Of a stretch of 64,000 bases of DNA, positions 1-41,803 are shown one piece after another (positions within the stretch are counted from its first letter, which is position 1; each line of letters opens with the position of its first letter). Location: NCBI GenBank assembly GCA_043812495.1, contig JBDRMG010000064.1:2799-66798 (forward strand), written 5' to 3'. The stretch is from Candidatus Omnitrophota bacterium. Lineage in GTDB: Bacteria > Omnitrophota > Gorgyraeia > Zapsychrales > JBDRMG01. A program made the translations under genes and the position numbers. The notes under the pieces are model-generated. The model saw nothing but the letters and a program-made list of their open reading frames with translations, made no database searches and was not told the DNA's origin.

Positions 1-216
1 TTGATGCGCCCAGTTGCGATGAATGCCCTCATTCTCCATTTTGCGGTGAAATATTTTATCCGTGAATTCTCTAGCAAGCTCGACGGTGCGATCCGTGCTT
101 TCGTCATCGACAATCACAGTTTCATCCACCCAGCCGTGGACACTTTCCAGGCACGTGCGAATATTTTCTTCCTCGTTCTTTGTTATAACAACAACGGAGA
201 CAGGTATTTTATGCAT
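1..216 (-). CDS. GT2-family glycosyltransferase, N-terminal part (gene continues beyond the window start)
   Basis: Minus-strand translation from ATG at 216 gives MHKIPVSVVVITKNEEENIRTCLESVHGWVDETVIVDDESTDRTVELAREF. This is a typical GT2 N-terminus (VITKNEE ... IVVDDxSTD). The ORF runs off the window edge and overlaps the downstream DegT gene by 8 nt. Confidence 0.6.
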   Translation of the reverse strand, partial: MHKIPVSVVVITKNEEENIRTCLESVHGWVDETVIVDDESTDRTVELAREFTDKIFHRKMENEGIHRNWAHQ

Positions 217-6931: not shown

Positions 6932-8062
6932 TTATTTTGTTTCTGATTTTAGGAACTTATCAATCGTCTGAATCACATAGTCGAGATGCGGGCGATCCAA
7001 ATCCTGATGCACGCCGATATGCAGGCCCTGCTCGCCGAAATATTCCGCGTTCGGAAAATCACCCAGTTTGTGACCGAGAAAAGCATATCCCGGACACTGT
7101 GTCGGCATGGAATAGAAAAGATTACGCGAATCAATCCCGGCTTTGTCGATATAATGAACGAATTCATCGCGCGTAAAAGGAACGTTTTCTTTTAAGGTGA
7201 TCGGAAAGGCATGCGGCCCGAGTTTTTCGTAGGGTTCTTCTTTGATGGAGAAAAGATATTTTTCGAACTGCTTAAATTGGTCGATCAAATACAACATATT
7301 TTCGCGTCTTTTCTCGAGAATCTTCTTGAAAATTCGAACATTTCCGAGGCCCACCGCAGCCTCGATTTCATTCATTTTGGCTGAAAATCCCACGCGCTTA
7401 TAAACAAATTTATGCTCCATGCCGTGGTTTCTTAAGGAGCGCAATATGTCTGCCATTTTGGCGTCATTGGTTAGAACTATACCGCCTTCGATCGTGGTAA
7501 TAATGTGGGCTGCGTAAAGGCTAAAGGCCGCCATATGGCCTAAGGTCCCGATTGTCTTGCCTTTGTATTCCGCGCCATGCGCTTCCGCCGCGTCCTCAAC
7601 GACATAAAGATTATGCTTCTTGGCAATTTCTAAAATTGGATCCATATCTGCCGGCTTTCCCATGAGATGCACCGGCATGATGGCCTTTGTTTTCTTGGTA
7701 ACTTTGGCCTCGATCTTCGCAGAATCAATGTTGAGTGTTTCTTTTTGAACGTCGACGAAAACAGGCGTAAATCCGGCATTCAAAACAGCATTACCTGTCG
7801 CAACAAACGATAAAGCCGGAATGATCACTTCGTCACCGCGCTTAGCACCATAATCATAAAGCACGGCCAGAGAAAGCGTATTGGCATCTGTTCCGCTTGA
7901 GACAGCCACGGCCTCTTTTGTACCGAATATTTTGGCAAATTCTTTTTCAAATTCCGCGACATATTTCCCACGCGTGATCCATCCCGTATCGAGAATCTGA
8001 TTAATTAATTCGCGCGCTTCATTCGTCACCGAAATCGTTCCAAAAGGTACTTTGTATTCCAT
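6932..8062 (-). CDS. DegT/DnrJ/EryC1/StrS-family sugar aminotransferase (second copy)
   Basis: Start at Met10 of the listed ORF (ATG 8062), preceded by AAGGAAGG. Motifs SSGTDANTLSL and PVHLMGKPADMD. Confidence 0.85.
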   Translation of the reverse strand: MEYKVPFGTISVTNEARELINQILDTGWITRGKYVAEFEKEFAKIFGTKEAVAVSSGTDANTLSLAVLYDYGAKRGDEVIIPALSFVATGNAVLNAGFTPVFVDVQKETLNIDSAKIEAKVTKKTKAIMPVHLMGKPADMDPILEIAKKHNLYVVEDAAEAHGAEYKGKTIGTLGHMAAFSLYAAHIITTIEGGIVLTNDAKMADILRSLRNHGMEHKFVYKRVGFSAKMNEIEAAVGLGNVRIFKKILEKRRENMLYLIDQFKQFEKYLFSIKEEPYEKLGPHAFPITLKENVPFTRDEFVHYIDKAGIDSRNLFYSMPTQCPGYAFLGHKLGDFPNAEYFGEQGLHIGVHQDLDRPHLDYVIQTIDKFLKSETK

Positions 8063-8075
8063 GTGTCCCTTCCTT

Positions 8076-9281
8076 TTAAACCCTCCCAAGAGGTTTTCTG
8101 AATTTTAACCGCAATAATGCAAAGACAAGCAGCAAGGCTGCGATGGTGACCGAAGACAGTTCTTCAAACAAATTCTCAAATTGATCTCCCACCACCGACT
8201 CCGCGGCCCAACTTGATAAAGCAAAAGCCAAAATCATCAAAACAAGCGTCAGTTTATCCTTGAAGTTCTCCTTCATCAGATAGCTCAATAAATAAATGTA
8301 AACGAATAAAAGGACAACAAAGTTTGTCATCCAGGCATTGGGATTAAAGATAGCCATGCCAATCATCAAAAGTCCGTAATCGATCAAGTTGGTGTCATTG
8401 CGGTTAGCCGCCGGCTGAAGCGTTAAAAGATAAATAAGCACGGCTAGAAAAATACCCGTTAACAAAGCTTCCTGAAATGTCAAGCGACCGACCGGTCTTC
8501 CGTAAGGCGAATCTGGTGATAGATACCTTAAAGCAAACGAATAGACAGACTGGTTTTTATAATCATACCAGCTAGATTGATCCAACGATGTTTTTGTAAT
8601 AAACGGCATCCATTTCTGAAGATAATTCACTTGGTTATCTACGCCAACATAAAGAGCAGGTAATGCCAAGAAAATGCATACAAAACATATCGTTAAAATA
8701 ATAATCCCGGTCCTGGCGCGTAAAAGTAAATACGGCAAAAAAATGGCCGGCATATATTTGAACATGACCGAAAGACCTAGAAAGGCCGACCCAAAGAAAG
8801 CTCTTTTATTTTCGAATAAATAAAGCGCCACCAATACCAAGAAAACCATGATGAGATTCACCTGCCCTGAATCCCACACAAGAAGTATGAAACGCGACGT
8901 GAAAAGAATGGAAAAGAAAAACATCGCGATTTTCTTTCTTAATGATAATTCTTCTATTCCGACTAGCTTAGCGGATACAAAACAAATTCCTATTAAAGAA
9001 AGGAAATTTAACGTAAAAAAGACCAAACTGGCCTGATGCTTGGGTAATAAACTTAAAGGGGAAATGAGCATCGCAAACATCGGTGAATATTTAAATGGCG
9101 TGATTTTCTTATCAGGACGACTATAGATATCCTTCTTTTCAAGAAATCGTTCACCGGTCGCGTAATAGACGCGAAAATCGGAATATTTTCTCTGCGGCGC
9201 GCGATTGGCATAGCGAACGAGATTGCCCGTAAAAACCGCGCAGATAACCAACAGAATGATGATTTTAAGACTCCGGCGCAT
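8076..9281 (-). CDS. Polytopic membrane glycosyltransferase, GT-C fold (ArnT/PMT-like)
   Basis: About 11 predicted TM helices, 401 aa from ATG 9281 (MRRSLKIIILLVICAVF). The 5' extension in the listed ORF overlaps the upstream GT2 gene. It is paired with an ArnC-like GT2 through a 17-nt overlap. Confidence 0.55.
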   Translation of the reverse strand: MRRSLKIIILLVICAVFTGNLVRYANRAPQRKYSDFRVYYATGERFLEKKDIYSRPDKKITPFKYSPMFAMLISPLSLLPKHQASLVFFTLNFLSLIGICFVSAKLVGIEELSLRKKIAMFFFSILFTSRFILLVWDSGQVNLIMVFLVLVALYLFENKRAFFGSAFLGLSVMFKYMPAIFLPYLLLRARTGIIILTICFVCIFLALPALYVGVDNQVNYLQKWMPFITKTSLDQSSWYDYKNQSVYSFALRYLSPDSPYGRPVGRLTFQEALLTGIFLAVLIYLLTLQPAANRNDTNLIDYGLLMIGMAIFNPNAWMTNFVVLLFVYIYLLSYLMKENFKDKLTLVLMILAFALSSWAAESVVGDQFENLFEELSSVTIAALLLVFALLRLKFRKPLGRV

Positions 9282-10002
9282 AATATCCTTTGCAATGATT
9301 ATAGCGTATCCTGAAAAGATCGATAAACATGCTTGTGGAATCACGAATGACATCCACCCGCGAATTTTCGCGATTGACCCACGTGACAGGCACCTCTTTG
9401 ATTCCATAACCCAATAATTTTGCGATAAACAAAATCTCTGCGTCAAAGCAAAAACCGCCGATGCGCTGACGGCTAAAAATGGGCGCGATTGTATTTCTTT
9501 TAAAACACTTAAAACCGCACTGCGTATCGATGATTCCACGAAAGAGGACCATCTGAACAAGCAAATTAAAAATCCTGCCCATGTTTCTTCTAAAGTATCC
9601 CTGTTTTTTGACAACGTTTGAGCCCGGCAGGGACCGAGACCCTATGGAAATATCAATTCTATCTTCGAGGGCCTGAAGAAGGCGGGGGATTTCTTCAACA
9701 GGGGTCGAAAGGTCCGCGTCCGCAAAGAACACATAATCTTTGGTCGCAGCCAGCATGCCCGTTTTGACGGTTGTTCCTTTTCCTTCGTTCTTGGAAATAT
9801 TAAGAACGCGGATATGGTTATCTTTCTTCGCGACATCCACTGCTTTTGCGTAAGAATCATCTGTGCTTCCGTCGTCAACAACAATGATTTCATAGGATCT
9901 GAAGTTCTTCGAAAGAAACTCTTTGGTCTTTATTAAGGCATCTTGAATGCAGGCCTCTTCATTGTAGACAGGGATAACAACAGAAACGCTTTTATTGTTC
10001 AT
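9265..10002 (-). CDS. GT2 polyprenyl-phosphate glycosyltransferase (ArnC/DPM1-like)
   Basis: SVVIPVYNEE ... IIVVDDGSTDDS ... FADADLSTP. Short 245-aa soluble GT2 of the type that charges undecaprenyl phosphate. Confidence 0.8.
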   Translation of the reverse strand: MNNKSVSVVIPVYNEEACIQDALIKTKEFLSKNFRSYEIIVVDDGSTDDSYAKAVDVAKKDNHIRVLNISKNEGKGTTVKTGMLAATKDYVFFADADLSTPVEEIPRLLQALEDRIDISIGSRSLPGSNVVKKQGYFRRNMGRIFNLLVQMVLFRGIIDTQCGFKCFKRNTIAPIFSRQRIGGFCFDAEILFIAKLLGYGIKEVPVTWVNRENSRVDVIRDSTSMFIDLFRIRYNHCKGYYAPES

Positions 10003-10013: not shown

Positions 10014-10733
10014 TTAGAGGTTTTTGATAATGTCTTGTGCAAGTTTATAGCGCTCGGGCGTGCCGATATCGATAAAAGCCTCTTTGGTCTTAAAACCATA
10101 AAATTTCTTTCCGACAAGGGTCGGGAAGAATTCCGTCTCGATGGAAAAGGCATTTTTTTCCGGCATCAAATCAAAAATGTTTTTATTAAAACAGTAAATG
10201 CCGACCGAGGCAAACGGCGTTTGCGTCTGTGTGGCTTTCTCGCTAAAATTTGCGATCTCATCGTTTGGACCGAGGATGATGGAACCAAAATCTTTTTTCT
10301 CTTTGAGTTCGTGGACAGCCAAGGTCGCCAAGGCGTCTTTCTTAAGATGAAAATCAAGGAGTCTTGGATAGGGTAATCGGCAAAAACAATCACCATTGAG
10401 AACAAAAAATCGATCACTCACAATAAGCGGTTGAACGTTCTTAACAGCTCCTCCTGTGCCCAATGGCTCAATTTCTTTGGAAAATTCAATGGATAAAGAA
10501 GATTGCCTTTTCCTGCAGAACTCTTCAATCATGTCCGACTTGTAGCCGACTCCAAGAATCACTCGCCTAAATCCCTGGCGTTCCAAATACTCTAGAAGAA
10601 TTCCTAGAAAAGGCTGACCCTGAATATGCGCAAGGACTTTTGGGATGACAGGCACTTCGGGCCGCAATCTTTTTCCAAGCCCTCCGCAAAGAATGAAAAT
10701 ATCAAGCTGGGATAATATATTATGGTCTCTCAT
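10014..10733 (-). CDS. Sugar-1-phosphate nucleotidyltransferase (HddC/GmhD-like, probable heptose-1-P guanylyltransferase)
   Basis: ILCGGLGKRLRPEVPVIPKVLAHIQGQPFL is the NTP_transferase G-loop. 239 aa, short single-domain form. Confidence 0.7.
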   Translation of the reverse strand: MRDHNILSQLDIFILCGGLGKRLRPEVPVIPKVLAHIQGQPFLGILLEYLERQGFRRVILGVGYKSDMIEEFCRKRQSSLSIEFSKEIEPLGTGGAVKNVQPLIVSDRFFVLNGDCFCRLPYPRLLDFHLKKDALATLAVHELKEKKDFGSIILGPNDEIANFSEKATQTQTPFASVGIYCFNKNIFDLMPEKNAFSIETEFFPTLVGKKFYGFKTKEAFIDIGTPERYKLAQDIIKNL

Positions 10734-10897
10734 AAAGGAGTGTTGAAATTGCTTCGATTTGTGTTATGATATTTTTGCTTAATTTCTGAAACTGACTGAC
10801 TTTCTTGAAATTAAAGATCGTTTAAAGTATACAGGAAGCCGCTGCAATTTTGAAGCAAAAAATATTCTACTTCGCATAATCAATAATAAAGATAGTA

Positions 10898-10990
10898 TGT
10901 GCTTCGTAGAATATTTTCCTTTGAATAATTCTCCGAAGCCTATACCATTATGTTCAATTTATAAGGCGAAGGAGAATAAAAAGCCTTCTG
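10898..10990. mobile_element. MITE-like dispersed repeat, family A copy 1 (ends TTATTCTCCTTCGCC / GCTTCGTAGAATATT)
   Basis: About 90 nt, near-identical to the reverse complement of 33331-33420 and related to 51447-51645. It lies just upstream of the radical SAM gene start. Confidence 0.6.
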
Positions 10991-11004
10991 TCACAAGAGG
11001 TTCC

Positions 11005-12441
11005 ATGAAATTACTCCTGATTTTTCCTAACTGGTGCACATCTTTTGGTGTATTCAAGAATATCGCCAAGAAGGCCTCTTCTTTTCCTCCCTTGGGTCTC
11101 TGCTATATTGCAGCGATTGCCGAAAAATGCGGCTGGGAAGTGAAAATCATCGATGGGGAAATTGACAGCCTATCGATTCCCGATATCATTAAGCAAACCG
11201 CCAATTTTGACCCTGATCTCATCGGCCTGACCGCAACGACACCATTTTTTTATAATGTCGCCCATATCGCAAGAAATTTGAAGTCTCATTTTCCCACGCC
11301 CATTATTGTCGGCGGACCGCATCCCTCTTTGCTGCGCGAGAAAGCATTTCTTGATGTCTTTGATTATTTATTTATCGGCGAGGCCGAAAAAAACCTGCCG
11401 GACTTTTTGAAAAGCTTTGCTCAAGGCCGGGAGGGTCGCGGCATAGCGGGAATTATGCGCCGAGAAAATGGAAAAATTCATTATACAAGCGATCCTCCAA
11501 AAACAGAAAACCTCGATGAGATCCCCTGGCCGGCGCGTCACTTAATTCCCTATAAGAAATATTCCATCGGGACTCTTCAAGGGACAAAAAACTATACATC
11601 GCTTTTCATGAGCCGGGGATGTCCTTTTGATTGTGTTTTCTGCGCTAATGATCTTTACGGAAAACGCGTCCGCAGCCGGGCCGTCAAGGAAGTCATCCGG
11701 GAGATTAGCTACATCGTGCATGAGCTGGGCATCCCCCATATTTATTTTCTTGACGATACATTAACTCTGGACAGGCCTTATATTCTGAGTCTCTGTGAGG
11801 AAATTAAGAAGAATCGCCTCCGTTTTACATTTGAAGGAAGCACCCGGGCTAATCTCTGGGACGAAGAAATGGTCCGGCTGATGAAAGACTGTGGTCTGAT
11901 CCGTATCAGCTTTGGGCTTGAAACCGTCGATCAGCATGTACGAAAAATCATCAAGAAAAATGTTCCGATCCGCAGTTATATGGACGCCAATCGACTCAAT
12001 GAAAGATTAAATATCGAAACGATTAATTCTGTCATGCTGGGACTTCCGGGTGAAAATTTGGAACGTATTCAAAAGACCGTCAATTATTTGACAAAGGCCA
12101 AATTCATTCAGCACGCGACGTACGGCATCGCCATTCCTTATCCGGGGACAGAAATGTACCAGATGGCCAAGAATCAAGAGCATGGCTTGAAGCTAATCTC
12201 CGATGACTTTGAGGATTATCAGCGCTACGGCAAAGCGGTCATGGAAGTGGGCGGCCTGAAACCTCAGGATATCGTCTATCTTCAAAAAATCGGTTTGATC
12301 AAAATCTATGCGCGTTGGTGGCGCCTGTGGCCTATTATTAAACGCCACGGTTTAAAAGCTCTTTTTGTTCCGGTTGTGGATGCTTTTGTAACTGTTATTC
12401 AAACGCTGTGCAGCAAGTTTTCTGGGCATAAATCAAAGTAG
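11005..12441 (+). CDS. Cobalamin-binding (class B) radical SAM protein, probable sugar C-methyltransferase
   Basis: Start at ATG 11005 (AAGAGG 6 nt upstream). B12-binding Rossmann N-domain and CPFDCVFC (CxxxCxxC). The 5' extension of the listed ORF is the MITE. Confidence 0.8.
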   Translation: MKLLLIFPNWCTSFGVFKNIAKKASSFPPLGLCYIAAIAEKCGWEVKIIDGEIDSLSIPDIIKQTANFDPDLIGLTATTPFFYNVAHIARNLKSHFPTPIIVGGPHPSLLREKAFLDVFDYLFIGEAEKNLPDFLKSFAQGREGRGIAGIMRRENGKIHYTSDPPKTENLDEIPWPARHLIPYKKYSIGTLQGTKNYTSLFMSRGCPFDCVFCANDLYGKRVRSRAVKEVIREISYIVHELGIPHIYFLDDTLTLDRPYILSLCEEIKKNRLRFTFEGSTRANLWDEEMVRLMKDCGLIRISFGLETVDQHVRKIIKKNVPIRSYMDANRLNERLNIETINSVMLGLPGENLERIQKTVNYLTKAKFIQHATYGIAIPYPGTEMYQMAKNQEHGLKLISDDFEDYQRYGKAVMEVGGLKPQDIVYLQKIGLIKIYARWWRLWPIIKRHGLKALFVPVVDAFVTVIQTLCSKFSGHKSK

Positions 12442-12451
12442 GAAGGGTTCC

Positions 12452-14212
12452 TTGATGAGAAATTTTGTGCAAAAAATATTCGCTCAGCTTTCCCTGGGTT
12501 TTCATGCCTTGATCAATCAGCAACCCCGACTCAGCGACAGCGTTATTCTTTCCATATTTGTTATCCTGATTACCCTCCAACCTTTTTATTTACACGGACA
12601 ACTCAATATTTTTGAATTTGGCATCTACCTTGGCGGTATCAATGAAATTCTAAGAGGGCATCTTCCCTATCTTGATGTATTCCATTTGCGCGGACCCTTA
12701 GAGCTTTACCCTCCCGCTTGGTTGATGATGATCTTCGGGAAAAATCTTTCTGTTTTAGCTACGTACTTTTATGTCTGTAACGTGTTGAGTCTTTTGATCT
12801 GCGTGTTGATCGCCAAAGAATTACTTCGCACGCGTCTTGCTCTTTATTTGCTTATTCCTGTTTTGGTCGGTCGGACATTCTTAAGGGTTGTATTCACATT
12901 TTGGGGCGGAATGCGCTTTGCGTCGGCTCTTTTGGTTGTTCTTGGTATTATTTATTGCTATAAGTTCAGAAAGCCGCTTTGGCTGTTGTTTTGCGGCCTG
13001 GCGACCGCGATAGCCTTGCTGATTAGCCTGGAGATGGGATTTGCCTGTGCTCTCAGCCTTCTCTCGACTTTTCTTTTTAGCCTTATCTTTCGCATCCAAA
13101 AACCCAAAACCGTGATGCGTCATCTGGGTCTCTGTATCGCCGGGGGAGCCATCATTATTCTTCCCTATTTTCTTTTTCTTCACTTTCATCAGGCTCTGAT
13201 GCCTTATATCCATGACGCTCTGAGCGTTGTATCGAATATGCCGAAGGCGATTCCGGTTCATTTTATAAGAAAAAACCCCCAAACTTTCTTCGAAGTGATT
13301 CGGGCCTTGCATCCGATGAGCGCAGATTACAAGTATATGACGCCCCTATTTTGCTTTCTGTTCTTGTCGGGTTATATTATTTATCGGTTAAAACAAAACA
13401 CAATTAAAGAAAACCAACTTGGCTTTATTGGCTTATCCGCTTTTGGGCTGGTCATGTATCAGCTGGCTTTTCGCAATTTTGAATCGGGCCAATTTGAAAT
13501 GGCCCTTCAGCCTGAGAAAATACTTCTTTTTATTATGCTCGAAGAGATTTTCTTGTGGGTTTGGAAGAAATGGCATGAGTTTTTCATATTCCTAAAAACA
13601 TCATCGGCCCCTCGCAGGATTCTTTACTTAAAAATCACGGGATTGAGCTTCTTGATTCTGGGTTTCTGCGCATCTTCGCTGGGCTACGCCTTGGCCCGTT
13701 TCAATAATCGGTTTATTACTTTTCACTATATGAAAGACTTCCTGACCGGCGGACAATCAAGAAACAAACTCATTCCTCTCTGGGGGGAAAATTCCGTTCG
13801 GTTAACCATTCCAACCATGAAAAATATCGTCGTTCCGGCCTTTCAAGCCCAGGATATTACCTCCGTTTATAAAACAATCCGAAAAAATACAGATCCTAAT
13901 GAGCCGGTTTTCTTCTTTCCTGAGCTGGCCAGTTATCATTTTATCGTCAACAGGCCTGCGATCGGGCGGTTTCCCATGGTGACATTTTCCTGGCTCAGAG
14001 AAGACTGGCAGCAACAGCTTATCGATGATTTGCAAAATGCACCGCCTCGTTTTGCCGTTATCCAAGTCGACCCGGGGGAATCATTTCCCCAATGCTATTT
14101 CAAGGTCCCGCGAAATAAAGAAAGCTATGACCGCATCTTAAGCTTTATCCACGATCACTACGAAGTCTTCCAGACAACGCCATCCTTGTTGATTTTCAGA
14201 AGAAAATCTTGA
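12452..14212 (+). CDS. Large polytopic membrane protein of unknown function
   Basis: 586 aa with at least 10 hydrophobic helices and no motif I recognise. Co-directional with the radical SAM gene. Confidence 0.55.
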   Translation: MMRNFVQKIFAQLSLGFHALINQQPRLSDSVILSIFVILITLQPFYLHGQLNIFEFGIYLGGINEILRGHLPYLDVFHLRGPLELYPPAWLMMIFGKNLSVLATYFYVCNVLSLLICVLIAKELLRTRLALYLLIPVLVGRTFLRVVFTFWGGMRFASALLVVLGIIYCYKFRKPLWLLFCGLATAIALLISLEMGFACALSLLSTFLFSLIFRIQKPKTVMRHLGLCIAGGAIIILPYFLFLHFHQALMPYIHDALSVVSNMPKAIPVHFIRKNPQTFFEVIRALHPMSADYKYMTPLFCFLFLSGYIIYRLKQNTIKENQLGFIGLSAFGLVMYQLAFRNFESGQFEMALQPEKILLFIMLEEIFLWVWKKWHEFFIFLKTSSAPRRILYLKITGLSFLILGFCASSLGYALARFNNRFITFHYMKDFLTGGQSRNKLIPLWGENSVRLTIPTMKNIVVPAFQAQDITSVYKTIRKNTDPNEPVFFFPELASYHFIVNRPAIGRFPMVTFSWLREDWQQQLIDDLQNAPPRFAVIQVDPGESFPQCYFKVPRNKESYDRILSFIHDHYEVFQTTPSLLIFRRKS

Positions 14213-14299
14213 TAGACAGGAACCAAGAAGAAATCAAGCGAATTTCTTCAGCTGAATTTGGCTCGATAGAATAGGTAGGGACATCCAGAGAGGGTAATC

Positions 14300-15298
14300 C
14301 TAAATGACTTTCCCGATATTTGGCTGGTAAAAAAGAATTTGTGTCCCAACATCTTCGAATCGAAAAGGGATCTCTAAGAATTTTTTTAATCGCTCTCTGA
14401 CCTTCTTTTGTTTCTTGGGATCACAATACAATAAAATAAATCCCCCGCCTCCCGCTCCCAGAAGCTTTCCGCCCATAGCGCCGGCCCTGCGGGCCGCCTG
14501 GTAAATCTCATCGATGCGGGGCGTGGTGACGCGATCGGACAATTCCCGTTTGATCATCCAACTTTCGTGAAGAAGTTTGCCGAAGTCGTCCAACCGGTCG
14601 CTTGTCAAGATTTTCATTGCCTGATGAGTCATTTGATACATGGTTTTAAGTTCTTTGCTTTTCTTTGGGATATTCTTGATTTGATGAAAGGCGATCTCCG
14701 ACGCATGCCGCGAAAATCCTGTAAAAAACAACATCAGGGATTTTTGTAAAGATTTTAATTTTCCCTCCGAAACAGTGATCTTTCGCATTTGAAAATCATC
14801 CTTGCCGCGGAATTCTATATAATTAAACCCGCCGAAAGACGCCAGGACCTGATCCTGGCAACCGACGACCTCTTGGCACATGTCCTGCTCCACATAAATC
14901 GCTTCTTGCGCCAGGCGTTCCTTGGTGGGCATCTCGCCTTTTAAGGCATAAAGAGCGTTCAGAATTCCGACGGTAAATGATGAACTTGACCCCAAACCCG
15001 TTCGTGCCGGAAGATCGCCATCATGATGAATCTCGACACCCTGGCGAATTTTAAGGAATCTTAGGACTTCTCGCACAGCCGGATGTTTGATTTCATCCAC
15101 GCTCTTGACGTGCTCAATCAGAGAGTAAGCGATTCTTGATTTATGTTCGAAAAAGGGCGGTAAATAACGGCAGGTAATATAACAGTATTTATCGATGGTG
15201 GTGGCCAAAACTGCCCCAGGATGGTCTTTGAACCAGGCCGGATAATCTGTTCCTCCTCCAAAGAAAGAAATGCGAAAGGGCGTTCGGCTGATAATCAT
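14300..15298 (-). CDS. GHMP-family sugar kinase (HddA-like D-glycero-D-manno-heptose 7-phosphate kinase)
   Basis: MIISRTPFRISFFGGGTDYP N-terminus plus the GHMP GLGSSSSF motif. Confidence 0.7.
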   Translation of the reverse strand: MIISRTPFRISFFGGGTDYPAWFKDHPGAVLATTIDKYCYITCRYLPPFFEHKSRIAYSLIEHVKSVDEIKHPAVREVLRFLKIRQGVEIHHDGDLPARTGLGSSSSFTVGILNALYALKGEMPTKERLAQEAIYVEQDMCQEVVGCQDQVLASFGGFNYIEFRGKDDFQMRKITVSEGKLKSLQKSLMLFFTGFSRHASEIAFHQIKNIPKKSKELKTMYQMTHQAMKILTSDRLDDFGKLLHESWMIKRELSDRVTTPRIDEIYQAARRAGAMGGKLLGAGGGGFILLYCDPKKQKKVRERLKKFLEIPFRFEDVGTQILFYQPNIGKVI

Positions 15299-16797
15299 GA
15301 TAGCGCTCCTGATTGATGAGTGGATAAAATTTTTCGTTCAATCTTATGTTTAAGCATTTCGCGGATATGCTCGACGGTTTCTTCTCCAAACTTTTCTTTG
15401 ATCATGGCCAGATAGCGCGGATCGCTGTAATATTTGACAAAAGCTTCGTCGCGAAAACGCAACACCTCGGCCGCCGAACAATGTTTGGTCGCTAAAGGCA
15501 GGGTCTCGGAACTGAATTGAGAAAATCCGATCCATCCTTCCGGCAAAGGAATGCCTTCTTCGAGCGCATCCTCATAAAGTTGTGACCCCGGGTACGCCAT
15601 GGTGGCATAAAAGTTGACATACTCACAATTCAGTTCCTGAGCCAAGTCGAGGGTCTCCTGCATGGTCTCCGAATCATCGTCGGGTAAGCCAAACATAAAA
15701 TTACCGATAATATAAATGCCGGCCTCGTGCGTCAACTGCATGGCTTTCTTGATCTGTTCGATATTAAAACGGCTTTTAGAGACTCCTTTGCGCACATTGG
15801 TGCTTGCCGCCTCAATGCCATAACACAACCAATTGACTCCGGCTTTTTTCAATTTTCGGAGAATCTCTTCATTGATCGTATCTACTCTGGCATAAGCCCA
15901 AATATTCAAATTGTAGTTGCGCTCGATCAATCGATCGCAAATGTCATAAAGCCGGTCTTTTTTAAGGACAAAAATTTCGTCGAGAAATTTGATATGTTTG
16001 ATTTTATGTGTCCGGACAAGATAGTCGATTTCTTCGATGGCCCGCTCGGGGCTGCGGAAGCGAATGCCCGGCCGCCCGCTATAGAGGGCATGAATATTGC
16101 AGTAACGGCAATTGTACGGGCATCCGAGGCTCGTATAAATGATCGCGTAGGAAGAGCGTTCCTTGAGATGCCCAAAACAATGCCAGTTATGGGCCCGGTA
16201 TTTGTCCATCGGTAAAAGATCCCAGGCCACAAAAGGCAGGCGATCAAGGTCAGAGACAACATCCGCCCAACCTCCGTCAACAACTTGTCCGTCGCATAAA
16301 TACCACAGGCCTTTGATGGAAAGACTTTTCGGATTTTTGTCCGCCTTTATGGCGCTCAATAATTCTGAAACAGGATAAAAGGCTTCCCCACGCGCCAGAT
16401 AATCCACCTGCTCTTCTTTCAATGTCCTTTCCGGTAAGGCCGAAGGATGGATGCCGTACAAAACGGTTTGGATAGCGGAATCTTTTTGTTTCAGAAGGGC
16501 TAAAACATTTTTCACGGCGATCATTTTAGGCGTGGAAGACGCCGAAGGATTCGCGCCGACCGCGCCGATCGCGACAAGACGCGGGTGATCGTGAAGGATT
16601 TGCTTAACGGTTTCTTCCGGCCCCCAGCCGAGCGCATCCGCATCAATGATCTTCACGCTAAAACCTTTTTCGCGCAAAAAACCGGCCAAAAGACCACCCC
16701 ATAAAGGCGGTTCGATTCCTGCCAGGGATTCGCCGAGCTTACCGTACATGTGTTTTTTGTTGCTGGGATTAACAACAATGACGTCGACGGAATTCAT
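15295..16797 (-). CDS. Cobalamin-binding (class B) radical SAM protein (second copy)
   Basis: 500 aa. B12-binding N-domain and YTSLGCPYNCRYCNI (CxxxCxxC). 4-nt overlap with the kinase. Confidence 0.8.
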   Translation of the reverse strand: MNSVDVIVVNPSNKKHMYGKLGESLAGIEPPLWGGLLAGFLREKGFSVKIIDADALGWGPEETVKQILHDHPRLVAIGAVGANPSASSTPKMIAVKNVLALLKQKDSAIQTVLYGIHPSALPERTLKEEQVDYLARGEAFYPVSELLSAIKADKNPKSLSIKGLWYLCDGQVVDGGWADVVSDLDRLPFVAWDLLPMDKYRAHNWHCFGHLKERSSYAIIYTSLGCPYNCRYCNIHALYSGRPGIRFRSPERAIEEIDYLVRTHKIKHIKFLDEIFVLKKDRLYDICDRLIERNYNLNIWAYARVDTINEEILRKLKKAGVNWLCYGIEAASTNVRKGVSKSRFNIEQIKKAMQLTHEAGIYIIGNFMFGLPDDDSETMQETLDLAQELNCEYVNFYATMAYPGSQLYEDALEEGIPLPEGWIGFSQFSSETLPLATKHCSAAEVLRFRDEAFVKYYSDPRYLAMIKEKFGEETVEHIREMLKHKIERKILSTHQSGALS

Positions 16798-16819
16798 GTT
16801 TTGTTTTCACCTTACGGGG

Positions 16820-17749
16820 TTATTTAAGAAAATCTTCCGCGGTCTTTATCACGCTTTTTGCGTCAATGCCGTAATATTCCCGGATAATGTCCCGGCCGCC
16901 GTATTCATAGCAATATCCTTTTTCATGAGAAAGCCCGATACGCTTAACGGGTTTCAAAATACCGTTATCTTCCAAGATTTCGCACACAGCGCTTCCGAAT
17001 CCCCCCGGTAAGAAATGTTCTTCCAGTGTGATGATTTTTTGCGCGTCTTTGATCAAATGAAGAAGGATCTCTTCGTTAATGGGAATCCGATAAACGTCAA
17101 TCACGCCGACGTCCATTCCCTTTTTCTTAAGCCCCTCGGCTGCCTCCAGGGCCACATGCGTCATGCTTCCGGTGGATAGGATAAACGAGCGTCCCGTTTT
17201 GAGCTGAGCAAGACCTTCGGAGAAATCCGTTAGCTCATTATACAGCGGCGGCAAAACCAAGCGGTCGAGCCGGACATAATTCGTCGTCGAAAGCGCGCAG
17301 CACATCTTGGCCACCTCGCGGGACATGAAGCTATCCGAAATGCTGTGAATGGCGATATTGGGCATCGAGCGCATAATCGCTATATCTTCTGTAATATGAT
17401 GCGTGGGGCCTGAATCTTCATAACCGAATCCGGCGCCAACGCCGACAATCGTAATGGGAATTTTCATTACAGCGTTATTGACGCGAATCTGCTCCAGGCA
17501 ACGCAACGTGATAAAAGGCGCAATCGCGTACGCAAAAACTTTCTTGCCCGTGAGGGCCAAACCGACCGAAACAAGAATACCGTTTTGCTCGGCGATACCG
17601 ACATTAACAAACTGGGAAGCTAAATCTTCTCTGAATTGGTCCAACGAGGGCGCGCCCATATCCGCTGAAACCACAACAATATCCTTATCGGTCTTGGCCA
17701 TTTCATACACTTGATTCCAAAAAGCATCTCTTTGCGTAATATTATTCAT
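16820..17749 (-). CDS. Transketolase, C-terminal (pyrimidine-binding) subunit
   Basis: Start at Met69 of the listed ORF (ATG 17749), 8-nt overlap with the N-terminal subunit. Conserved transketolase Pyr and C-domain sequence. Confidence 0.85.
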   Translation of the reverse strand: MNNITQRDAFWNQVYEMAKTDKDIVVVSADMGAPSLDQFREDLASQFVNVGIAEQNGILVSVGLALTGKKVFAYAIAPFITLRCLEQIRVNNAVMKIPITIVGVGAGFGYEDSGPTHHITEDIAIMRSMPNIAIHSISDSFMSREVAKMCCALSTTNYVRLDRLVLPPLYNELTDFSEGLAQLKTGRSFILSTGSMTHVALEAAEGLKKKGMDVGVIDVYRIPINEEILLHLIKDAQKIITLEEHFLPGGFGSAVCEILEDNGILKPVKRIGLSHEKGYCYEYGGRDIIREYYGIDAKSVIKTAEDFLK

Positions 17750-18578
17750 TGCTACACCTTCTTTCCAGCTCGCAGATGGCTTGCTTGGCTTCATCGCCTT
17801 TGGGGGCGATACCGTGGCAAATCGGCCGATAACAGAATGATTCGATTCCTTCGCCTTTGACGGTATCCGCGATGACAACCAAAGGTTTTGCTGATCGTCG
17901 GGAACGAACGCGCTTAAAAGCTTCGATGATCTCTTCCATCTTGTGCCCGTCAATACAAATCACGTCCCAGCCGAATGATTTCCATTTGTCGGCCATGGGT
18001 TCCAAGGCAATCAAATTTTCCGTGAAGTCGGTAACGCACAGAAAATTGCGATCCACAATAGCGACAAGATTATTCAATCGGTTGTGGGACGCAAACATAG
18101 CGGTTTCCCAAATCGAGCCTTCATAACATTCTCCGTCTCCTAAAAGCGTGCAGACAAGATAAAGTTCGCGGTTCATTTTGGCACCCAGCGCGATACCGGC
18201 GGCTGTTCCGAATCCTTGGCCCAGGGAGCCGGCTGTGATTTCAACACCAGGGACGCTATTTTGCAGATGCACGCCGAATTTTCCGTCTTTCTGGGCGAAT
18301 AAGTTCAAATCTCTTGTGCTGAAATAACCGCAATCCGCCAAGACGGCATAAAGAACGGGGCTGGCCTGACCTTTGCTTAAAATAAACCGGTCCCGTTCGG
18401 ACCACTCCGGTTTTTTCGGATCATGATTTAAAAGTCCCCCGTGATACAAGGCCACAAGAATATCCACGCAGGACATGGAGGATGTCACGTGACCCGTGCC
18501 GGCCTTGATGCACATATTCAATACGATTTTACGAATCTGCGAAGCTTTATTTTTTAGCTCGCCAATATCATCAGACAT
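17742..18578 (-). CDS. Transketolase, N-terminal (TPP-binding) subunit
   Basis: GHVTSSMSCVDILVALYH ... GSLGQGFGTAAGIALGAK TPP-binding motifs. Confidence 0.85.
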   Translation of the reverse strand: MSDDIGELKNKASQIRKIVLNMCIKAGTGHVTSSMSCVDILVALYHGGLLNHDPKKPEWSERDRFILSKGQASPVLYAVLADCGYFSTRDLNLFAQKDGKFGVHLQNSVPGVEITAGSLGQGFGTAAGIALGAKMNRELYLVCTLLGDGECYEGSIWETAMFASHNRLNNLVAIVDRNFLCVTDFTENLIALEPMADKWKSFGWDVICIDGHKMEEIIEAFKRVRSRRSAKPLVVIADTVKGEGIESFCYRPICHGIAPKGDEAKQAICELERRCSNE

Positions 18579-18592
18579 GCTTGACCCCCTTG

Positions 18593-19525
18593 TTAAACAT
18601 TTGCATATTGATTTCGTTTAATAATTTTATAACCCTTAACCAATTCCTTGATGCCGTCGGAAAGTGAACAATCGGGTTTGTATCCTGTTTTTTCAATTTT
18701 TTCGTTGCTAACGATATAGTCTCGTTTATCCGGATCCTCGCCGATCTTGGATTCGACAAAATAAAAGTCAGGAACATACTTTTTGATCTCTTCGCAAAGT
18801 TCCAGCTTGCTCAAATTGGCATCGCTCAAGCCCACATTATAAGGTTCGTTTTTCATTTTCTCAAAATTATTCAAAGCATGAATAAATGCCTTGGCCACAT
18901 CACGCACGTGAATATAATTTCGTTTAAAATGGGCTTCAAACAAGACAATATAGCGATCGTAAACCGCATGATAAACAAAATCATTGACCAGAAGATCCAA
19001 GCGCATGCGCGGGCTGATGCCAAAGGCGGTCGCCAATCTTAAAGTGATGGCGTTCCCGGATTCAAGCAGGGCATTCTCTGCTTCCGCTTTCCATTGACCG
19101 TAGGTTGAGACAGGTTTGAGGGGTGTTTCCTCGGTGCAAAACTTATCTTTCTGCCCGATCCCATAACCGCTATTGGTTGTCGGAAAAACAATCATTTGGT
19201 TTTTGCTGCGGCATTCCAGAATCAATTGGATGGCATCGAGATTAATACTTTTTGCGCCCCAGGGATCTTTATTGCACAAAGGCGCGCCTGTCAAGCAGGC
19301 TAAAGGGATAATCGCATCCTTGCCTTTTAAAAGGTCTTTAATCAAGGTCGATTGACGGGCATCCCCTCTTGTGATCGTTAAGCTTGGATTGTGGCAGCAA
19401 TCCAAAAGAGAGGATTGATTGTACATGAAGCTATCAAGAACCGAAACATGATGACCTTCCTGAAGTAATCTGGGAACTAAAACAGAACCGAGATATCCGG
19501 CTGCGCCGGTCACTAAAATATTCAT
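18593..19525 (-). CDS. NAD-dependent sugar-nucleotide epimerase/dehydratase (extended SDR)
   Basis: MNILVTGAAGYLGSVLVPRLL Rossmann start (Met29 of the listed ORF). Confidence 0.75.
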   Translation of the reverse strand: MNILVTGAAGYLGSVLVPRLLQEGHHVSVLDSFMYNQSSLLDCCHNPSLTITRGDARQSTLIKDLLKGKDAIIPLACLTGAPLCNKDPWGAKSINLDAIQLILECRSKNQMIVFPTTNSGYGIGQKDKFCTEETPLKPVSTYGQWKAEAENALLESGNAITLRLATAFGISPRMRLDLLVNDFVYHAVYDRYIVLFEAHFKRNYIHVRDVAKAFIHALNNFEKMKNEPYNVGLSDANLSKLELCEEIKKYVPDFYFVESKIGEDPDKRDYIVSNEKIEKTGYKPDCSLSDGIKELVKGYKIIKRNQYANV

Positions 19526-20466
19526 TGGCGAGACTCCGTTTCCCTTTTCTTTTTGTACCACGCATATGTTTTTTCTATGCCGTCCCGAAGAGATATCTTG
19601 GCTTTCCATCCCAGGCGATGAATACGACTTGAATCCAGAAGTTTTTGATTGGCCCCATCGGGTTTCGAGCGGTCAAAAACGATTTTCCCTGCAAAACCAG
19701 AGACCTCTTTGATCATTTGGGCTAACTCTTGGATGGACACATCTGATCCGCAACCCATATTCATTAGTTCAGGAGAGCGGGCGCGGTCCATCAGAAAAAG
19801 GCTTGCTTCAACAAAATCATCGCAAAAAAGAAATTCTCTTCGCGGACTTCCGCTTCCCCAAACCGTCACGTCTTTCTTATTGTCTTGAACAGCTTCATAA
19901 AATTTTCCGATCAAAGCGTTCAGAACATGCGCATCTTCCAAATCAACATCTTCTCCGGGTCCGAAGACCGTGGCCGGCACGGTCACGACAGTATCGAGGC
20001 CGTATTGCGCGCGATAAGCCTGGCAGAGCTTGACTCCCGAAATCTTGGCCACGGCATAGGCTTCGCTGGTGGATTCAACAGGTCCGTTCAATAAATCTTC
20101 CTCTTTCATGGGTTGGCGACATTCTTTTGGGTAAATGCAGGAACTGGCATAAAAAAGCAGTTTTTTGGCCTTAAACTTATAGGCCGCATGGACAACATTA
20201 TTCTGGCTTTCAAGATTATGGTAGATGAATTCGCCCGGATTCTTGATATTGGCGGCAATCCCGCCGGAGCGGGTGGATGCGAGGAAAATATATTCCGGTC
20301 TTTCGCGTGAGAAAAATTCATAGACGGAAGGTTGAATTGCGCAATCCAGAGCGATAGCCGAGGAAGAAAAAACATGTAGAAAACCATGGGTTTCAAAATA
20401 CCGGACAAGGGATTTTTCGATGATATCGTTATGGCCAATAATGAGTATTTTTGATTGTTTTTCCAT
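19522..20466 (-). CDS. fcl: GDP-L-fucose synthase-like 3,5-epimerase/4-reductase
   Basis: It aligns well by eye to Fcl/WcaG (SSCIYPKECRQPMKEEDLLNGPVESTSEAYAVAKISGVKLCQAYRAQYG, VWGSGSPRREFLF). In this context it may instead act on a GDP-heptose. Confidence 0.8.
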   Translation of the reverse strand: MEKQSKILIIGHNDIIEKSLVRYFETHGFLHVFSSSAIALDCAIQPSVYEFFSRERPEYIFLASTRSGGIAANIKNPGEFIYHNLESQNNVVHAAYKFKAKKLLFYASSCIYPKECRQPMKEEDLLNGPVESTSEAYAVAKISGVKLCQAYRAQYGLDTVVTVPATVFGPGEDVDLEDAHVLNALIGKFYEAVQDNKKDVTVWGSGSPRREFLFCDDFVEASLFLMDRARSPELMNMGCGSDVSIQELAQMIKEVSGFAGKIVFDRSKPDGANQKLLDSSRIHRLGWKAKISLRDGIEKTYAWYKKKRETESRQ

Positions 20467-22050: not shown

Positions 22051-22130
22051 ACCTAGATTATTTTAAAATTAAATTTAGATTCTCGCAAGCCTGAAAATAA
22101 CTTATACGATATCCCAAAATCTGCATATAA

Positions 22131-22178
22131 AAACCCCGCACCTTTTTAAAAAGCTATCTTTTAAGGTGCGGGGTTAAT
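22131..22178 (-). terminator. Rho-independent terminator downstream of csp
   Basis: CCCCGCACC ... GGTGCGGGG 9-bp stem, followed on the minus-strand RNA by UUUUUAUA. Confidence 0.6.
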
Positions 22179-22186
22179 TTTCTGGA

Positions 22187-22387
22187 TTAGACTTTCGTTA
22201 CGTTGACCGCCTGCTTGCCTTTCGGTCCTTGTTCGATCTCGAACTGAACTTCCTGGCCTTCGTCTAGAGATTTGTAACCATCGCCCTGAACAGCAGAAAA
22301 ATGCACAAAGACATCTTCGCCGGATTCGGGTGAGATGAATCCATAACCCTTTTGGTTATTAAACCATTTGACTTTACCTTTTTGCAC
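22187..22387 (-). CDS. Cold-shock protein (CspA family)
   Basis: [31 protein letters not shown] cold-shock domain. Probable GTG start at 22387, with a perfect AAGGAGG 9 nt upstream. The listed 80-aa ORF has an unlikely N-terminal extension. Confidence 0.8.
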
Positions 22388-26850: not shown

Positions 26851-26876
26851 AAATCCCCTTCTCTTGTTAAAAATAT

Positions 26877-29757: not shown

Positions 29758-29759
29758 GG

Positions 29760-31406: not shown

Positions 31407-31444
31407 CGCGCATATTGACTCTTGAGAAAAGATCGCACTCAACA

Positions 31445-38683: not shown

Positions 38684-38695
38684 CCTATTGATTGT

Positions 38696-41801: not shown

Positions 41802-41803
41802 AG

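Follow-up and report, generated by a model that had tools for sequence, protein, structure and literature searches.

A widespread gene cassette that may build a branched surface sugar from GDP-heptose with a B12-domain radical SAM enzyme

A stretch of 64,000 nucleotides from contig JBDRMG010000064.1 of a Candidatus Omnitrophota bacterium (referred to here as the window) contains a block of sugar-nucleotide genes at positions 10014-20466. This report deals with that block, above all with rSAM2, a radical S-adenosylmethionine (SAM) enzyme with a B12-binding domain, and with the genes that accompany rSAM2 in other genomes (referred to as the cassette). As shown in Table 1, the listing of open reading frames (ORFs), Pfam, and NCBIfam confirmed the position and family of every gene that an earlier reading of the sequence (the original prediction) had named in the block: an HddC-like nucleotidyltransferase, an HddA-like GHMP kinase, two B12-binding/radical SAM proteins (rSAM1 and rSAM2), a split transketolase (TK), a short-chain dehydrogenase/reductase (SDR), and an Fcl-like SDR. 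A stop codon marks the end of the block at 10014 and an ATG start codon the end at 20466, and the minus-strand genes have tight or overlapping junctions. Two genes that belong to the story had not been mentioned: X586 and the DegT gene at 6932-8089. The block is surrounded by a wider glycan locus with GT2, GT87, GT4, and GT9 glycosyltransferases, a carbamoyltransferase, and two DegT genes, and rml genes, sugar dehydrogenases, and lptD are found further downstream (Pfam). The block is regarded as the core of a surface-glycan locus of the lipopolysaccharide (LPS) type in this Candidatus Omnitrophota lineage.

Table 1. Genes of the block and of the adjoining glycan locus in the window
Feature	Position	Strand	Basis or remark
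Fcl-like extended SDR	19522..20466	-	First gene of the minus-strand operon; GDP-L-fucose synthase, 370 bits
Cj1427-type C4-dehydrogenase (by homology), extended SDR	18593..19525	-	PDB 6vo6/6vo8, 59% identity
Thiamine-diphosphate enzyme, N-terminal (PP-domain) subunit	17742..18578	-	Pfam Transketolase_N, 138 bits
Thiamine-diphosphate enzyme, C-terminal (Pyr + C-terminal domain) subunit	16820..17749	-	Pfam Transket_pyr, Transketolase_C
rSAM2, B12-binding + Radical_SAM, core cassette enzyme	15295..16797	-	Pfam
HddA-like GHMP sugar kinase	14300..15298	-	NCBIfam HddA, 146 bits; PDB
X586, 586-aa polytopic membrane protein, rSAM1 partner	12452..14212	+	No Pfam/NCBIfam match
rSAM1, B12-binding + Radical_SAM	11005..12441 (ORF from 10897)	+	Pfam
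HddC-like NTP_transferase, predicted guanylyltransferase	10014..10733	-	NCBIfam HddC, 148 bits
Small GT2, ArnC/DPM1-type polyprenyl-phosphate glycosyltransferase-like	9265..10002	-	Pfam Glycos_transf_2; NCBIfam
GT87-like GT-C membrane glycosyltransferase (polyprenyl-P-mannose-dependent type)	8076..9281	-	Pfam GT87, 83 bits
His-type DegT, predicted PMP-dependent sugar 3-dehydratase (ColD/RfbH type)	6932..8089	-	PDB alignment; NCBIfam
Lys-type DegT-family aminotransferase	209..1318	-	Pfam DegT, 425 bits

Is this set of genes found elsewhere? Orthologues of rSAM2 with 47-70% identity exist in at least 565 species-level genomes of many bacterial phyla and of archaea; the carriers include Omnitrophota, Planctomycetota, Desulfobacterota, Nitrospira, Cyanobacteria, Chloroflexota, Elusimicrobiota, Methanoperedens, and Nanoarchaeota. 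I collected 80 loci with an rSAM2 orthologue and three more from an exact look-up, and 82 distinct loci from other genomes were scored. The neighbourhoods were scored in two ways, with the window proteins as queries and by an unbiased clustering of all ORFs, and partners were counted within 10 kb. Six families emerged as the main partners: the window's type of SDR, a C4-dehydrogenase by homology (64 of the 82 loci), a DegT protein of the His type described below (62), a two-subunit thiamine enzyme (62), the GHMP kinase (59), the nucleotidyltransferase (52), and the Fcl-like SDR (47). A GmhA-like SIS isomerase and a GmhB-like HAD phosphatase are found less frequently, in 18/82 and 12/82 loci, respectively. 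Four or more of these six lie near rSAM2 in 60 of the 82 loci, and in 41 of the 48 loci for which at least 18 kb of sequence is available. Thus, the clustering is real and old and does not result from chance. No description of this gene set was found in the literature searched, a search that left most subscription journals outside; within that scope, the claim of the original prediction that no pathway with this gene set has been described holds true.

An archaeal version of the cassette, which looks self-sufficient, was found in Candidatus Methanoperedens (L005; GCA_049303315.1, 2856-17057). It comprises a PfkB kinase, a canonical-looking split transketolase with a transaldolase, a second TK pair of the cassette type, a Cj1427-like SDR, rSAM2, the kinase, the nucleotidyltransferase, a His-type DegT, an rSAM1-like protein, a GmhA-like SIS, and a GmhB-like HAD. 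An ABC transporter and NeuB follow.

The SDR of the block matches the PDB entries 6vo6 and 6vo8 over its full length (residues 2-309) with an E-value of 1e-123. The 6vo6 sequence falls in a protein cluster of Campylobacter jejuni. Its gene has an fcl-like gene on one side and hddA-gmhA2-hddC (for a GHMP kinase, a SIS protein, and an NTP-transferase) on the other, with an RmlC-like gene located upstream. The order corresponds to Cj1430 to Cj1423, and therefore 6vo6 is Cj1427. The identity between the SDR and Cj1427 is 59% over 307 residues, and the orthologues across the related loci show 45-77% identity. Cj1427 is a C4-dehydrogenase that converts GDP-D-glycero-α-D-manno-heptose into GDP-D-glycero-4-keto-α-D-lyxo-heptose by a ping-pong oxidation, in which a tightly bound NADH is recycled by α-ketoglutarate (PMC10680097). 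The close homology indicates that the SDR is a GDP-D-glycero-α-D-manno-heptose C4-dehydrogenase of the Cj1427 type, which would produce a GDP-4-keto-heptose. The original prediction had assigned a 4,6-dehydration followed by epimerisation and reduction to the SDR and the Fcl-like protein. This was not borne out; the SDR is unlikely to be a 4,6-dehydratase because Cj1427 leaves C6 hydroxylated.

The DegT protein encoded at 6932-8089 most closely resembles GDP-perosamine synthase (3dr7) among PDB entries, with an E-value of 5e-74. Its Schiff-base lysine is replaced by histidine (FSLYAAHIITT versus FSFFGNKIITT of perosamine synthase), and histidine occupies the catalytic lysine position in 63 of the 69 DegT proteins of the related loci. 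The lysine-to-histidine replacement is a hallmark of the ColD- and E1-type sugar 3-dehydratases, which depend on pyridoxamine 5′-phosphate (PMP). The top NCBIfam model is the RfbH 3-dehydrase (NF011936), whose score of 277 bits is below the cut-off of 423. In C. jejuni, the C3-dehydratase of serotype HS:5 takes the Cj1427 product in vitro and yields GDP-3-deoxy-4-keto-heptose with an m/z of 616.08 (PMC10680097). Thus, deoxygenation is predicted at C3 and not at C6, and the 6-deoxy route of the original prediction gives way to a histidine-type DegT outside the block. This DegT protein is predicted to be the core 3-dehydratase of the cassette, of the ColD/RfbH type. GDP-D-glycero-α-D-manno-heptose, Cj1427, and the C3-dehydratase have already been made or purified and assayed (PMC10680097).

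The second DegT protein of the window (209-1318) retains the catalytic lysine and is an ordinary aminotransferase. Its orthologues in L007 and L040 show 59-60% identity. Its link to the cassette is weaker, and a late amination step is possible. A Lys-type DegT stands in place of the His-type in L007 and L012, while it is additional to the His-type in L040 and in the window. Depending on the lineage, the product of the cassette is probably an amino or a deoxy variant.

For the activation of the sugar, a kinase and a nucleotidyltransferase are available. The best NCBIfam model for the kinase is HddA (NF049969), although the score of 146 bits is below the cut-off of 600. Its relatives in the PDB are 3k85, 4usk/4usm (WcbL), and 4n3o (HddA), with E-values of about 1e-36. 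The identity is 29% to C. jejuni HddA and 53-71% to the orthologues in the related loci, and the kinase gene overlaps the rSAM2 gene by 4 nt. The kinase is HddA-like but not a proven equivalog, and it is predicted to be an anomeric kinase for D-glycero-D-manno-heptose 7-phosphate. The nucleotidyltransferase scores highest against HddC (NF049965; 148 bits, cut-off 300), followed by 142 bits against the mannose-1-phosphate guanylyltransferase model. Its best PDB match is 5xhw/6jq8, annotated as a "6-deoxy-D-mannoheptose pathway protein" (E = 2e-39), and its identity to Cj1423 HddC is 35%.

As the original prediction had noted, the window lacks GmhA and GmhB. No GmhA, GmhB, or RmlC-like gene was found in the 64-kb window by tblastn and by Pfam searches of the remaining ORFs. 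On the other hand, a SIS (GmhA-like) gene is located inside the cassette in 18 loci and a HAD (GmhB-like) gene in 12 loci, including those of Methanoperedens, an archaeon without an LPS pathway that could provide such enzymes. Since the window encodes a GT9 heptosyltransferase, it is plausible that GmhA and GmhB are encoded elsewhere in this organism. The GDP-heptose activation route put forward in the original prediction is thus supported by the HddA/WcbL and HddC relatives of the two enzymes, by the similarity of the SDR to Cj1427, and by the SIS and HAD genes of other cassettes.

The thiamine diphosphate (ThDP) enzyme is encoded by two genes. The C-half starts within the N-half, so that the two genes share 8 nt, and the ATG codon at 17749 has a GGAAAGAAGG stretch upstream. 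The two halves score 271 and 153 bits with the NCBIfam transketolase model, whose cut-off is 488. I compared the residues of 27 cassette TK pairs in the numbering of E. coli TktA. The GDG...N metal/ThDP motif and the equivalents of the cofactor-activating Glu411 and the catalytic His473 are present in all 27 pairs. The C-half of the window enzyme keeps the equivalents of Arg358 and Arg520 in addition to Glu411 and His473. Of the residues that bind the sugar phosphate and the donor hydroxyl groups in transketolase (His26, His66, His100, His461, Asp469, and Arg520), three are substituted in the window: His66 by Gln, His461 by Gly, and Asp469 by Ser. The Gly and the Ser are features of the cassette-type TKs, and the Gln is a feature of the window's subtype. 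The other subtype lacks His26, His100, His461, Asp469, and Arg520. The only TK pair with all the canonical residues is the one beside the transaldolase in the Methanoperedens locus, where it is additional to the cassette-type pair.

A TK-type pair is present in 26 loci, and an α/β pair resembling the E1 component of pyruvate dehydrogenase (PDH) is present in 36 loci (315 and 316 bits with the PDH E1 models); none of the 82 loci has both. The exchange has taken place at the same slot, as seen by comparing the window with the syntenic Omnitrophota loci L040 and L042. Co-evolution of rSAM2 with the type of thiamine enzyme was considered and rejected: the mean identity of rSAM2 is 53.2% within the types and 52.5% between them, and the SDR and the kinase show the same pattern. 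This type-independent identity of the partners suggests that the TK and E1 types are interchangeable.

In the biosynthesis of paulomycin and avilamycin, PDH-E1-like pairs are proposed, or genetically supported, to add a pyruvate-derived two-carbon chain at C4 of 4-keto-deoxysugars linked to a nucleoside diphosphate (NDP). YerE and ErwE perform a thiamine-dependent branching at C4 of a 3,6-dideoxy-4-keto sugar for the O-antigen sugars yersiniose and erwiniose. A C4-dehydrogenase combined with a 3-dehydratase would give the type of acceptor that YerE and ErwE use. By analogy, the thiamine enzyme of the cassette probably adds a two-carbon unit to a 4-keto sugar rather than supplying sedoheptulose 7-phosphate; this is favoured by the TK/E1 replacement at the same slot, by the loss of substrate residues, and by the branching precedents. 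Of the two roles that the original prediction had offered for the transketolase, two-carbon addition is therefore retained. Sedoheptulose-7-phosphate supply was rejected, since His66, His461, and Asp469 are replaced and the slot is held by PDH-E1-like pairs in 36 loci.

rSAM1 and rSAM2 each match an annotated protein of a Candidatus Omnitrophota metagenome-assembled genome with 100% identity. Both exceed the Pfam thresholds for Radical_SAM (PF04055) and B12-binding (PF02310). In rSAM2, the scores are 70 bits for the former and 53 bits for the latter (threshold 32), and the CxxxCxxC motif (C226, C230, and C233) is invariant among the orthologues. The class B architecture claimed in the original prediction is thus confirmed by the motif and the B12-binding domain, while the assignment to a subfamily by hidden Markov models failed. 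Neither protein reaches the cut-off of any curated family in NCBIfam, including the methylases (HpnR, PhpK, KedN5, TsrM, the methyl-coenzyme M reductase (MCR) glutamine methylase, and the C-methylases of ribosomally synthesized and post-translationally modified peptides). The highest models for both are the non-methylases BchE and HpnJ with 157-165 bits (cut-offs 481-578); for rSAM2, BchE gives 165 bits and HpnJ 164 bits, about a third of the cut-offs. No cobalamin riboswitch was found in the 64-kb window.

The AlphaFold2 model of rSAM2 (mean predicted local distance difference test score, pLDDT, 87) resembles AprD4 most closely (template modelling (TM) scores 0.72/0.79), with a fold-aligned identity of about 21%. 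The next fold matches are TsrM, MgmA, OxsB, CysS, and TokK. AprD4 is also the best sequence match among the solved structures (E = 4e-22), where the alignment is confined to the radical SAM core (residues 203-444), and it is the closest solved relative of rSAM1 as well. According to a 2026 review, AprD4 lies inside the similarity network of B12-radical-SAM enzymes and yet binds no cobalamin (PMC12931638). The words polysaccharide, heptose, and GDP do not appear in the text of that review (PMC12931638). It is predicted from the sequence that rSAM2 modifies an unactivated carbon of a GDP-sugar, by methylation or by an AprD4-like dehydration. The C-methyltransferase reading of the original prediction is thus one possible outcome. 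That prediction had placed both radical SAM enzymes in the pathway; rSAM2 belongs to the conserved cassette, while rSAM1 adjoins the cassette in only 4 of the 82 loci.

The Fcl-like protein scores 370 bits with the NCBIfam GDP-L-fucose synthase model (cut-off 500). Its PDB matches include the E. coli GDP-fucose synthase 1bsv (E = 3e-82) and the Cj1428 entry 7m13 (E = 5e-65), and its identity to Cj1428 is 36%. The Ser-Tyr-Lys triad and the epimerisation pair Cys109/His179 of GDP-L-fucose synthase were compared in 48 cassette homologues. Lys is found in 48 of them, Cys109 in 47, Ser in 43, and Tyr in 37; all four are retained in the window protein. Most homologues have Gly or Asn in place of His179, and the window protein has Gly. 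These positions were defined with an E. coli reference sequence and are given low weight. The protein is predicted to reduce a GDP-keto-sugar or a side-chain carbonyl with NAD(P)H, possibly with epimerisation at C5.

Two glycosyltransferases next to the block may deliver the sugar. The best NCBIfam matches of the small GT2 are all polyprenyl-phosphate transferases: ArnC (96 bits), PgfS, AglJ, and a dolichyl-phosphate hexose transferase. Its homologues are found in about 10 related loci, and a separate GT2 family of 236-residue proteins is found in 15. The GT87-like protein, whose likely start is the ATG at 9281, gives 50 bits with the NCBIfam mannosyltransferase model PRK13375 and has an orthologue with 45% identity in the syntenic locus L040. 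A transfer via a polyprenyl-phosphate-linked monosaccharide is a reasonable reading of these matches.

It is proposed that the cassette turns GDP-heptose into a 3-deoxy, two-carbon-branched, radical-SAM-modified surface sugar, and I regard the chances of this proposal as evenly balanced. In step 1, GmhA (encoded elsewhere) would convert sedoheptulose 7-phosphate into D-glycero-D-manno-heptose 7-phosphate, and the HddA-like kinase would phosphorylate C1. GmhB (also encoded elsewhere) would then take off the 7-phosphate, and the HddC-like transferase would form GDP-D-glycero-α-D-manno-heptose. In step 2, the Cj1427-type SDR would oxidise C4. In step 3, the His-type DegT would remove the C3 hydroxyl by PMP chemistry to give GDP-3-deoxy-4-keto-heptose. 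In step 4, the two-subunit thiamine enzyme would put a two-carbon unit on the C4 carbonyl to give a branched sugar, as compared with Plm8/9, AviB1/B2, and YerE. In step 5, the Fcl-like SDR would reduce the remaining carbonyl, and in step 6, rSAM2 would modify an unactivated carbon, most simply by methylation. In step 7, the ArnC-like GT2 and the GT87-like GT-C protein would transfer the sugar via a polyprenyl-phosphate carrier onto the glycan. Steps 1-3 are suggested by close homology to characterised enzymes and by the conserved gene context, while steps 4-7 are drawn by analogy.

Several observations weigh against this proposal. Three proteins fall well short of their NCBIfam equivalog cut-offs (kinase 146/600, nucleotidyltransferase 148/300, Fcl-like protein 370/500) and share only 29-36% identity with their C. 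jejuni counterparts, so that their substrates are only putative. The gmhA and gmhB genes are missing from the window. An NDP-keto-sugar is not a known substrate of any transketolase-family thiamine enzyme, and both the acceptor and the donor of the cassette enzyme are purely inferred. If C4 is already quaternary, the Fcl-like enzyme needs a non-canonical substrate, and steps 3-6 may run in another order. Among solved structures, rSAM2 comes closest to a dehydratase that works without cobalamin. Since a Lys-type DegT replaces the His-type in L007 and L012, the products must differ between lineages. In addition, the Cj1427-like SDR and the kinase also occur without rSAM2 or the thiamine enzyme in a metagenome-assembled genome (MAG) of Bacillota.

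In that Bacillota MAG (L090/L091, 7205-14468), an SDR with 67% identity to Cj1427 and a GHMP kinase of the cassette type are found together. No radical SAM enzyme, thiamine enzyme, or nucleotidyltransferase is encoded within 10 kb of the pair. An FAD oxidoreductase of the DAO family is found there instead, and 8 rSAM2 loci have one of the same type. Possibly, the cassette grew from the SDR-kinase pair as its oldest unit.

Other explanations of the gene set were weighed. An AprD4-like dehydration of the 6,7-diol is a serious rival to methylation. In this case, rSAM2 would act as a diol dehydratase on the exocyclic C6-C7 glycol of the GDP-heptose and produce an aldehyde or a ketone, the thiamine enzyme would carboligate a unit onto the aldehyde to give a nine-carbon sugar, and the Fcl-like and DegT enzymes would tailor the ring. 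Enzymes of the transketolase, DXS, and E1 types normally take aldehydes as acceptors, and the Cj1427 route keeps the C6 hydroxyl, so the 6,7-diol is preserved. AprD4, the top match of rSAM2 in both sequence and fold, acts on a sugar diol and binds no cobalamin despite its place in the B12-radical-SAM network (PMC12931638). However, the sequence match does not extend beyond the radical SAM core, whereas the N-terminal domain of rSAM2 passes the Pfam B12-binding threshold and aligns with the BchE, HpnR, and BzaD models, which argues for a real cobalamin domain. Such a reaction is also without precedent on a nucleotide sugar, and overall I consider it unlikely. The activated sugar may also be a hexose or another sugar rather than a heptose, with a salvage-type anomeric kinase and a Cj1427-like enzyme of shifted specificity, leading to a branched or deoxy hexose comparable to yersiniose. 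The low identities of the kinase (29%) and the transferase (35%) to HddA and HddC, far below the equivalog cut-offs, would fit this, as would the nearly equal score of the mannose-1-phosphate guanylyltransferase model and the lack of gmhA and gmhB in the window and most related loci. Nevertheless, the full-length similarity of the SDR to Cj1427 speaks for a heptose, as do the SIS and HAD genes of other cassettes, including those of archaea without an LPS heptose pathway; moreover, the GT9 heptosyltransferase of the window implies that heptose phosphates are made anyway. A non-heptose substrate therefore seems quite improbable.

The scheme of the original prediction, in which the transketolase makes sedoheptulose 7-phosphate, the SDR and the Fcl-like protein form a 6-deoxyheptose, and both radical SAM enzymes C-methylate the sugar, fits the Pfam and NCBIfam family names. 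The Methanoperedens locus, where the cassette has a canonical-looking TK pair and a transaldolase beside it, also indicates that precursor supply can be clustered with it. That canonical pair is, however, additional to the cassette-type pair, and the window TK has lost His66, His461, and Asp469. The PDH-E1-like pairs that fill the slot in 36 loci are incapable of making sedoheptulose 7-phosphate, the SDR is an orthologue of a C4-dehydrogenase, and rSAM1 is not a conserved member of the cassette. The scheme as a whole is very improbable. Finally, polysaccharide loci are mosaics, and the block might be a collection of unrelated sugar modifications in a variable locus with no common pathway. The flanking glycosyltransferases do differ between loci, and rSAM1 and X586 are indeed a separate insertion. 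This reading is strongly disfavoured, to the point of being hardly credible, by the recurrence of six or seven families near rSAM2 in 60 of the 82 loci from many phyla and archaea and by the tight or overlapping junctions in the window. The branched 3-deoxy sugar derived from GDP-heptose is the reading carried forward here.

How does the proposed pathway compare with known systems? The capsular heptose pathway of C. jejuni (GmhA2/HddA/GmhB/HddC, Cj1427, the HS:5 C3-dehydratase, the Cj1430 epimerase, and the Cj1428 C4-reductase) follows the same activation logic. In both systems, a C4-dehydrogenase (59% identity) is followed by a PMP-type 3-dehydratase, and a reductase of the Fcl family is present. 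In contrast, the window has no RmlC-type epimerase, GmhA, or GmhB, and the identity of its kinase, transferase, and reductase to their C. jejuni counterparts is only 29-36%. The two-subunit thiamine enzyme and the B12-domain radical SAM enzyme that the cassette adds are found in no Campylobacter pathway. A thiamine-dependent C4 branching of a 4-keto sugar nucleotide is known for yersiniose (YerE/YerF), erwiniose (ErwE/ErwF), paulomycose (Plm8/Plm9 = Pau11/Pau12), and eurekanate (AviB1/AviB2). In these acyl-branched pathways, a side-chain reductase acts afterwards, and the acceptor is 3-deoxygenated in the yersiniose and erwiniose routes. Plm8/9 and AviB1/B2 are PDH-E1 α/β-like pairs, like those in the 36 related cassettes. 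The substrates differ, being CDP- or dTDP-6-deoxyhexoses in the known pathways and GDP-heptose in the cassette. YerE and ErwE are single-chain thiamine enzymes resembling acetolactate synthase, with YerE-type enzymes being ThDP flavoproteins, while the window enzyme is a two-subunit member of the transketolase family, so the comparison with YerE extends only to the proposed type of reaction. None of the acyl-branched pathways has a transketolase-type pair or a radical SAM enzyme.

The class B enzymes GenK, GenD1, and Fms7, which C-methylate sugars in antibiotics, and TokK, CysS, TsrM, and MgmA share the architecture of the window proteins, with an N-terminal domain of the B12-binding type and a CxxxCxxC motif, and their folds match with TM scores of 0.62-0.68. 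Their sequence likeness to the window proteins is only at the superfamily level (E-values of 1e-3 to 1e-13), and the known sugar-methylating members act on aminoglycoside pseudo-oligosaccharides and not on nucleotide sugars of cell-surface glycans. AprD4, the radical SAM 1,2-diol dehydratase of apramycin biosynthesis, acts on a sugar and is the best sequence and fold match of both window radical SAM proteins. It binds no cobalamin, whereas the N-terminal domains of the window proteins pass the Pfam B12-binding threshold. In the lincosamide octose pathway, the LmbR transaldolase, LmbN isomerase, LmbP GHMP kinase, LmbK phosphatase, and LmbO guanylyltransferase produce a GDP-activated higher sugar, which is tailored by SDR- and DegT-type enzymes. 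This resembles the cassette in that a C-C-bond enzyme of the central-metabolism type is clustered with an isomerase/kinase/phosphatase/nucleotidyltransferase set. The lincosamide transaldolase builds a ketose phosphate before activation; the swapping of TK-type for PDH-E1-type pairs among the cassettes argues against such a ketose-phosphate-forming role here. In short, the first half of the proposed pathway resembles the heptose modification of C. jejuni, to which the SDR belongs. The second half resembles the acyl-branched pathways in logic but uses other enzyme families, and for the radical SAM step, no counterpart that acts on nucleotide sugars has been described.

The other radical SAM gene of the block, rSAM1, is annotated from the internal ATG at 11005 and encodes 478 residues. 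Homologues with 46-53% identity stand beside the cassette in four loci, embedded in L005, L021, and L035 and on a short contig in L041. Other homologues with 51-64% identity have a large membrane protein as neighbour, in some cases together with a small GT2, in unrelated surroundings that lack heptose genes (L001, L002, and L089). In the syntenic Omnitrophota loci, both rSAM1 and X586 are absent from L040, and L042 has two X586 homologues and no rSAM1; in L088, two X586 homologues flank an rSAM1 orthologue. Thus, rSAM1 and X586 constitute an accessory two-gene insertion in the opposite orientation and are not part of the cassette core. X586 has at least six hydrophobic segments in its first 410 residues and a soluble C-terminal part, and it is possibly a GT-C-like transferase. 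The two proteins may modify a lipid-linked sugar. The membrane partners in L001, L002, and L089 were considered as relatives of X586 and rejected, as phmmer gave no similarity; only the proteins of L088 and L042 are homologous. A B12 radical SAM enzyme paired with a Pfam-less membrane protein of 540-706 residues recurs as a module in L088, L089, L001, L002, L042, and the window (11005-14212, plus strand). This module often has a small GT2 nearby, is independent of the heptose cassette, and lies amid glycine-cleavage genes in L089.

Some other features of the window were also noted. A gene for a carbamoyltransferase of the NodU/CmcH type (3159-4985, minus strand) lies inside the glycan locus. 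Its orthologues, with 67% and 46% identity, adjoin the cassette in Desulfobacterales and Planctomycetia loci (L006, 279-2096; L020), and the one in L006 is accompanied by SxtJ-like and DUF5989 genes. The carbamoyltransferase beside the cassette suggests that the glycan is O-carbamoylated in some lineages. A second sugar-nucleotide block (37730-46562, minus strand) comprises a UXS/GMD-like SDR gene, two genes of the UDP-glucose/GDP-mannose dehydrogenase family, rmlD, rmlB, and rmlA. It directly adjoins lptD and a ROK kinase gene, which is consistent with an LPS of the Gram-negative type. A radical SAM/SPASM protein (28429-29757) is encoded amid four Pfam-less ORFs of 694, 197, 343, and 581 residues (24766-31505, minus strand); these genes may constitute a peptide maturation system or another uncharacterised system unrelated to the sugar cassette. 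The sole Rfam match in the window is a cspA thermoregulator (22129-22487, minus strand), with 78.8 bits against a gathering score of 78. It overlaps an ORF of 80 residues (22187-22429), which may encode a cold-shock protein. Terminator-like and promoter-like sites lie at 20623-20547, just upstream of the Fcl-like gene, and support the operon start weakly, as the scans were near background.

It is tentatively suggested, at somewhat less than an even chance, that rSAM2 is the first cobalamin-domain radical SAM enzyme to act on a nucleotide sugar for a surface glycan, and that with a TK- or E1-type enzyme it builds an undescribed branched or chain-extended 3-deoxy sugar of 8-10 carbons from GDP-heptose. 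The carriers are almost all uncultured, an exception being the cyanobacterium Floridaenema fluviatile BLCC-F154 (L074), and rSAM2 is usually accompanied by the same partner genes; thus, this is not a curiosity of one genome. The system is real, widespread, and testable, and its thiamine and radical SAM steps are the most interesting. If the proposal is true, three activities would be unprecedented: the action of a transketolase-family enzyme on a nucleotide sugar, the takeover of this function by PDH-E1-like pairs, and the tailoring of a GDP-sugar by a B12-domain radical SAM enzyme. The product would represent a new family of cell-surface sugars with a wide distribution among uncultured Omnitrophota, Planctomycetota, Nitrospira, anammox bacteria, and Cyanobacteria as well as in Methanoperedens archaea.

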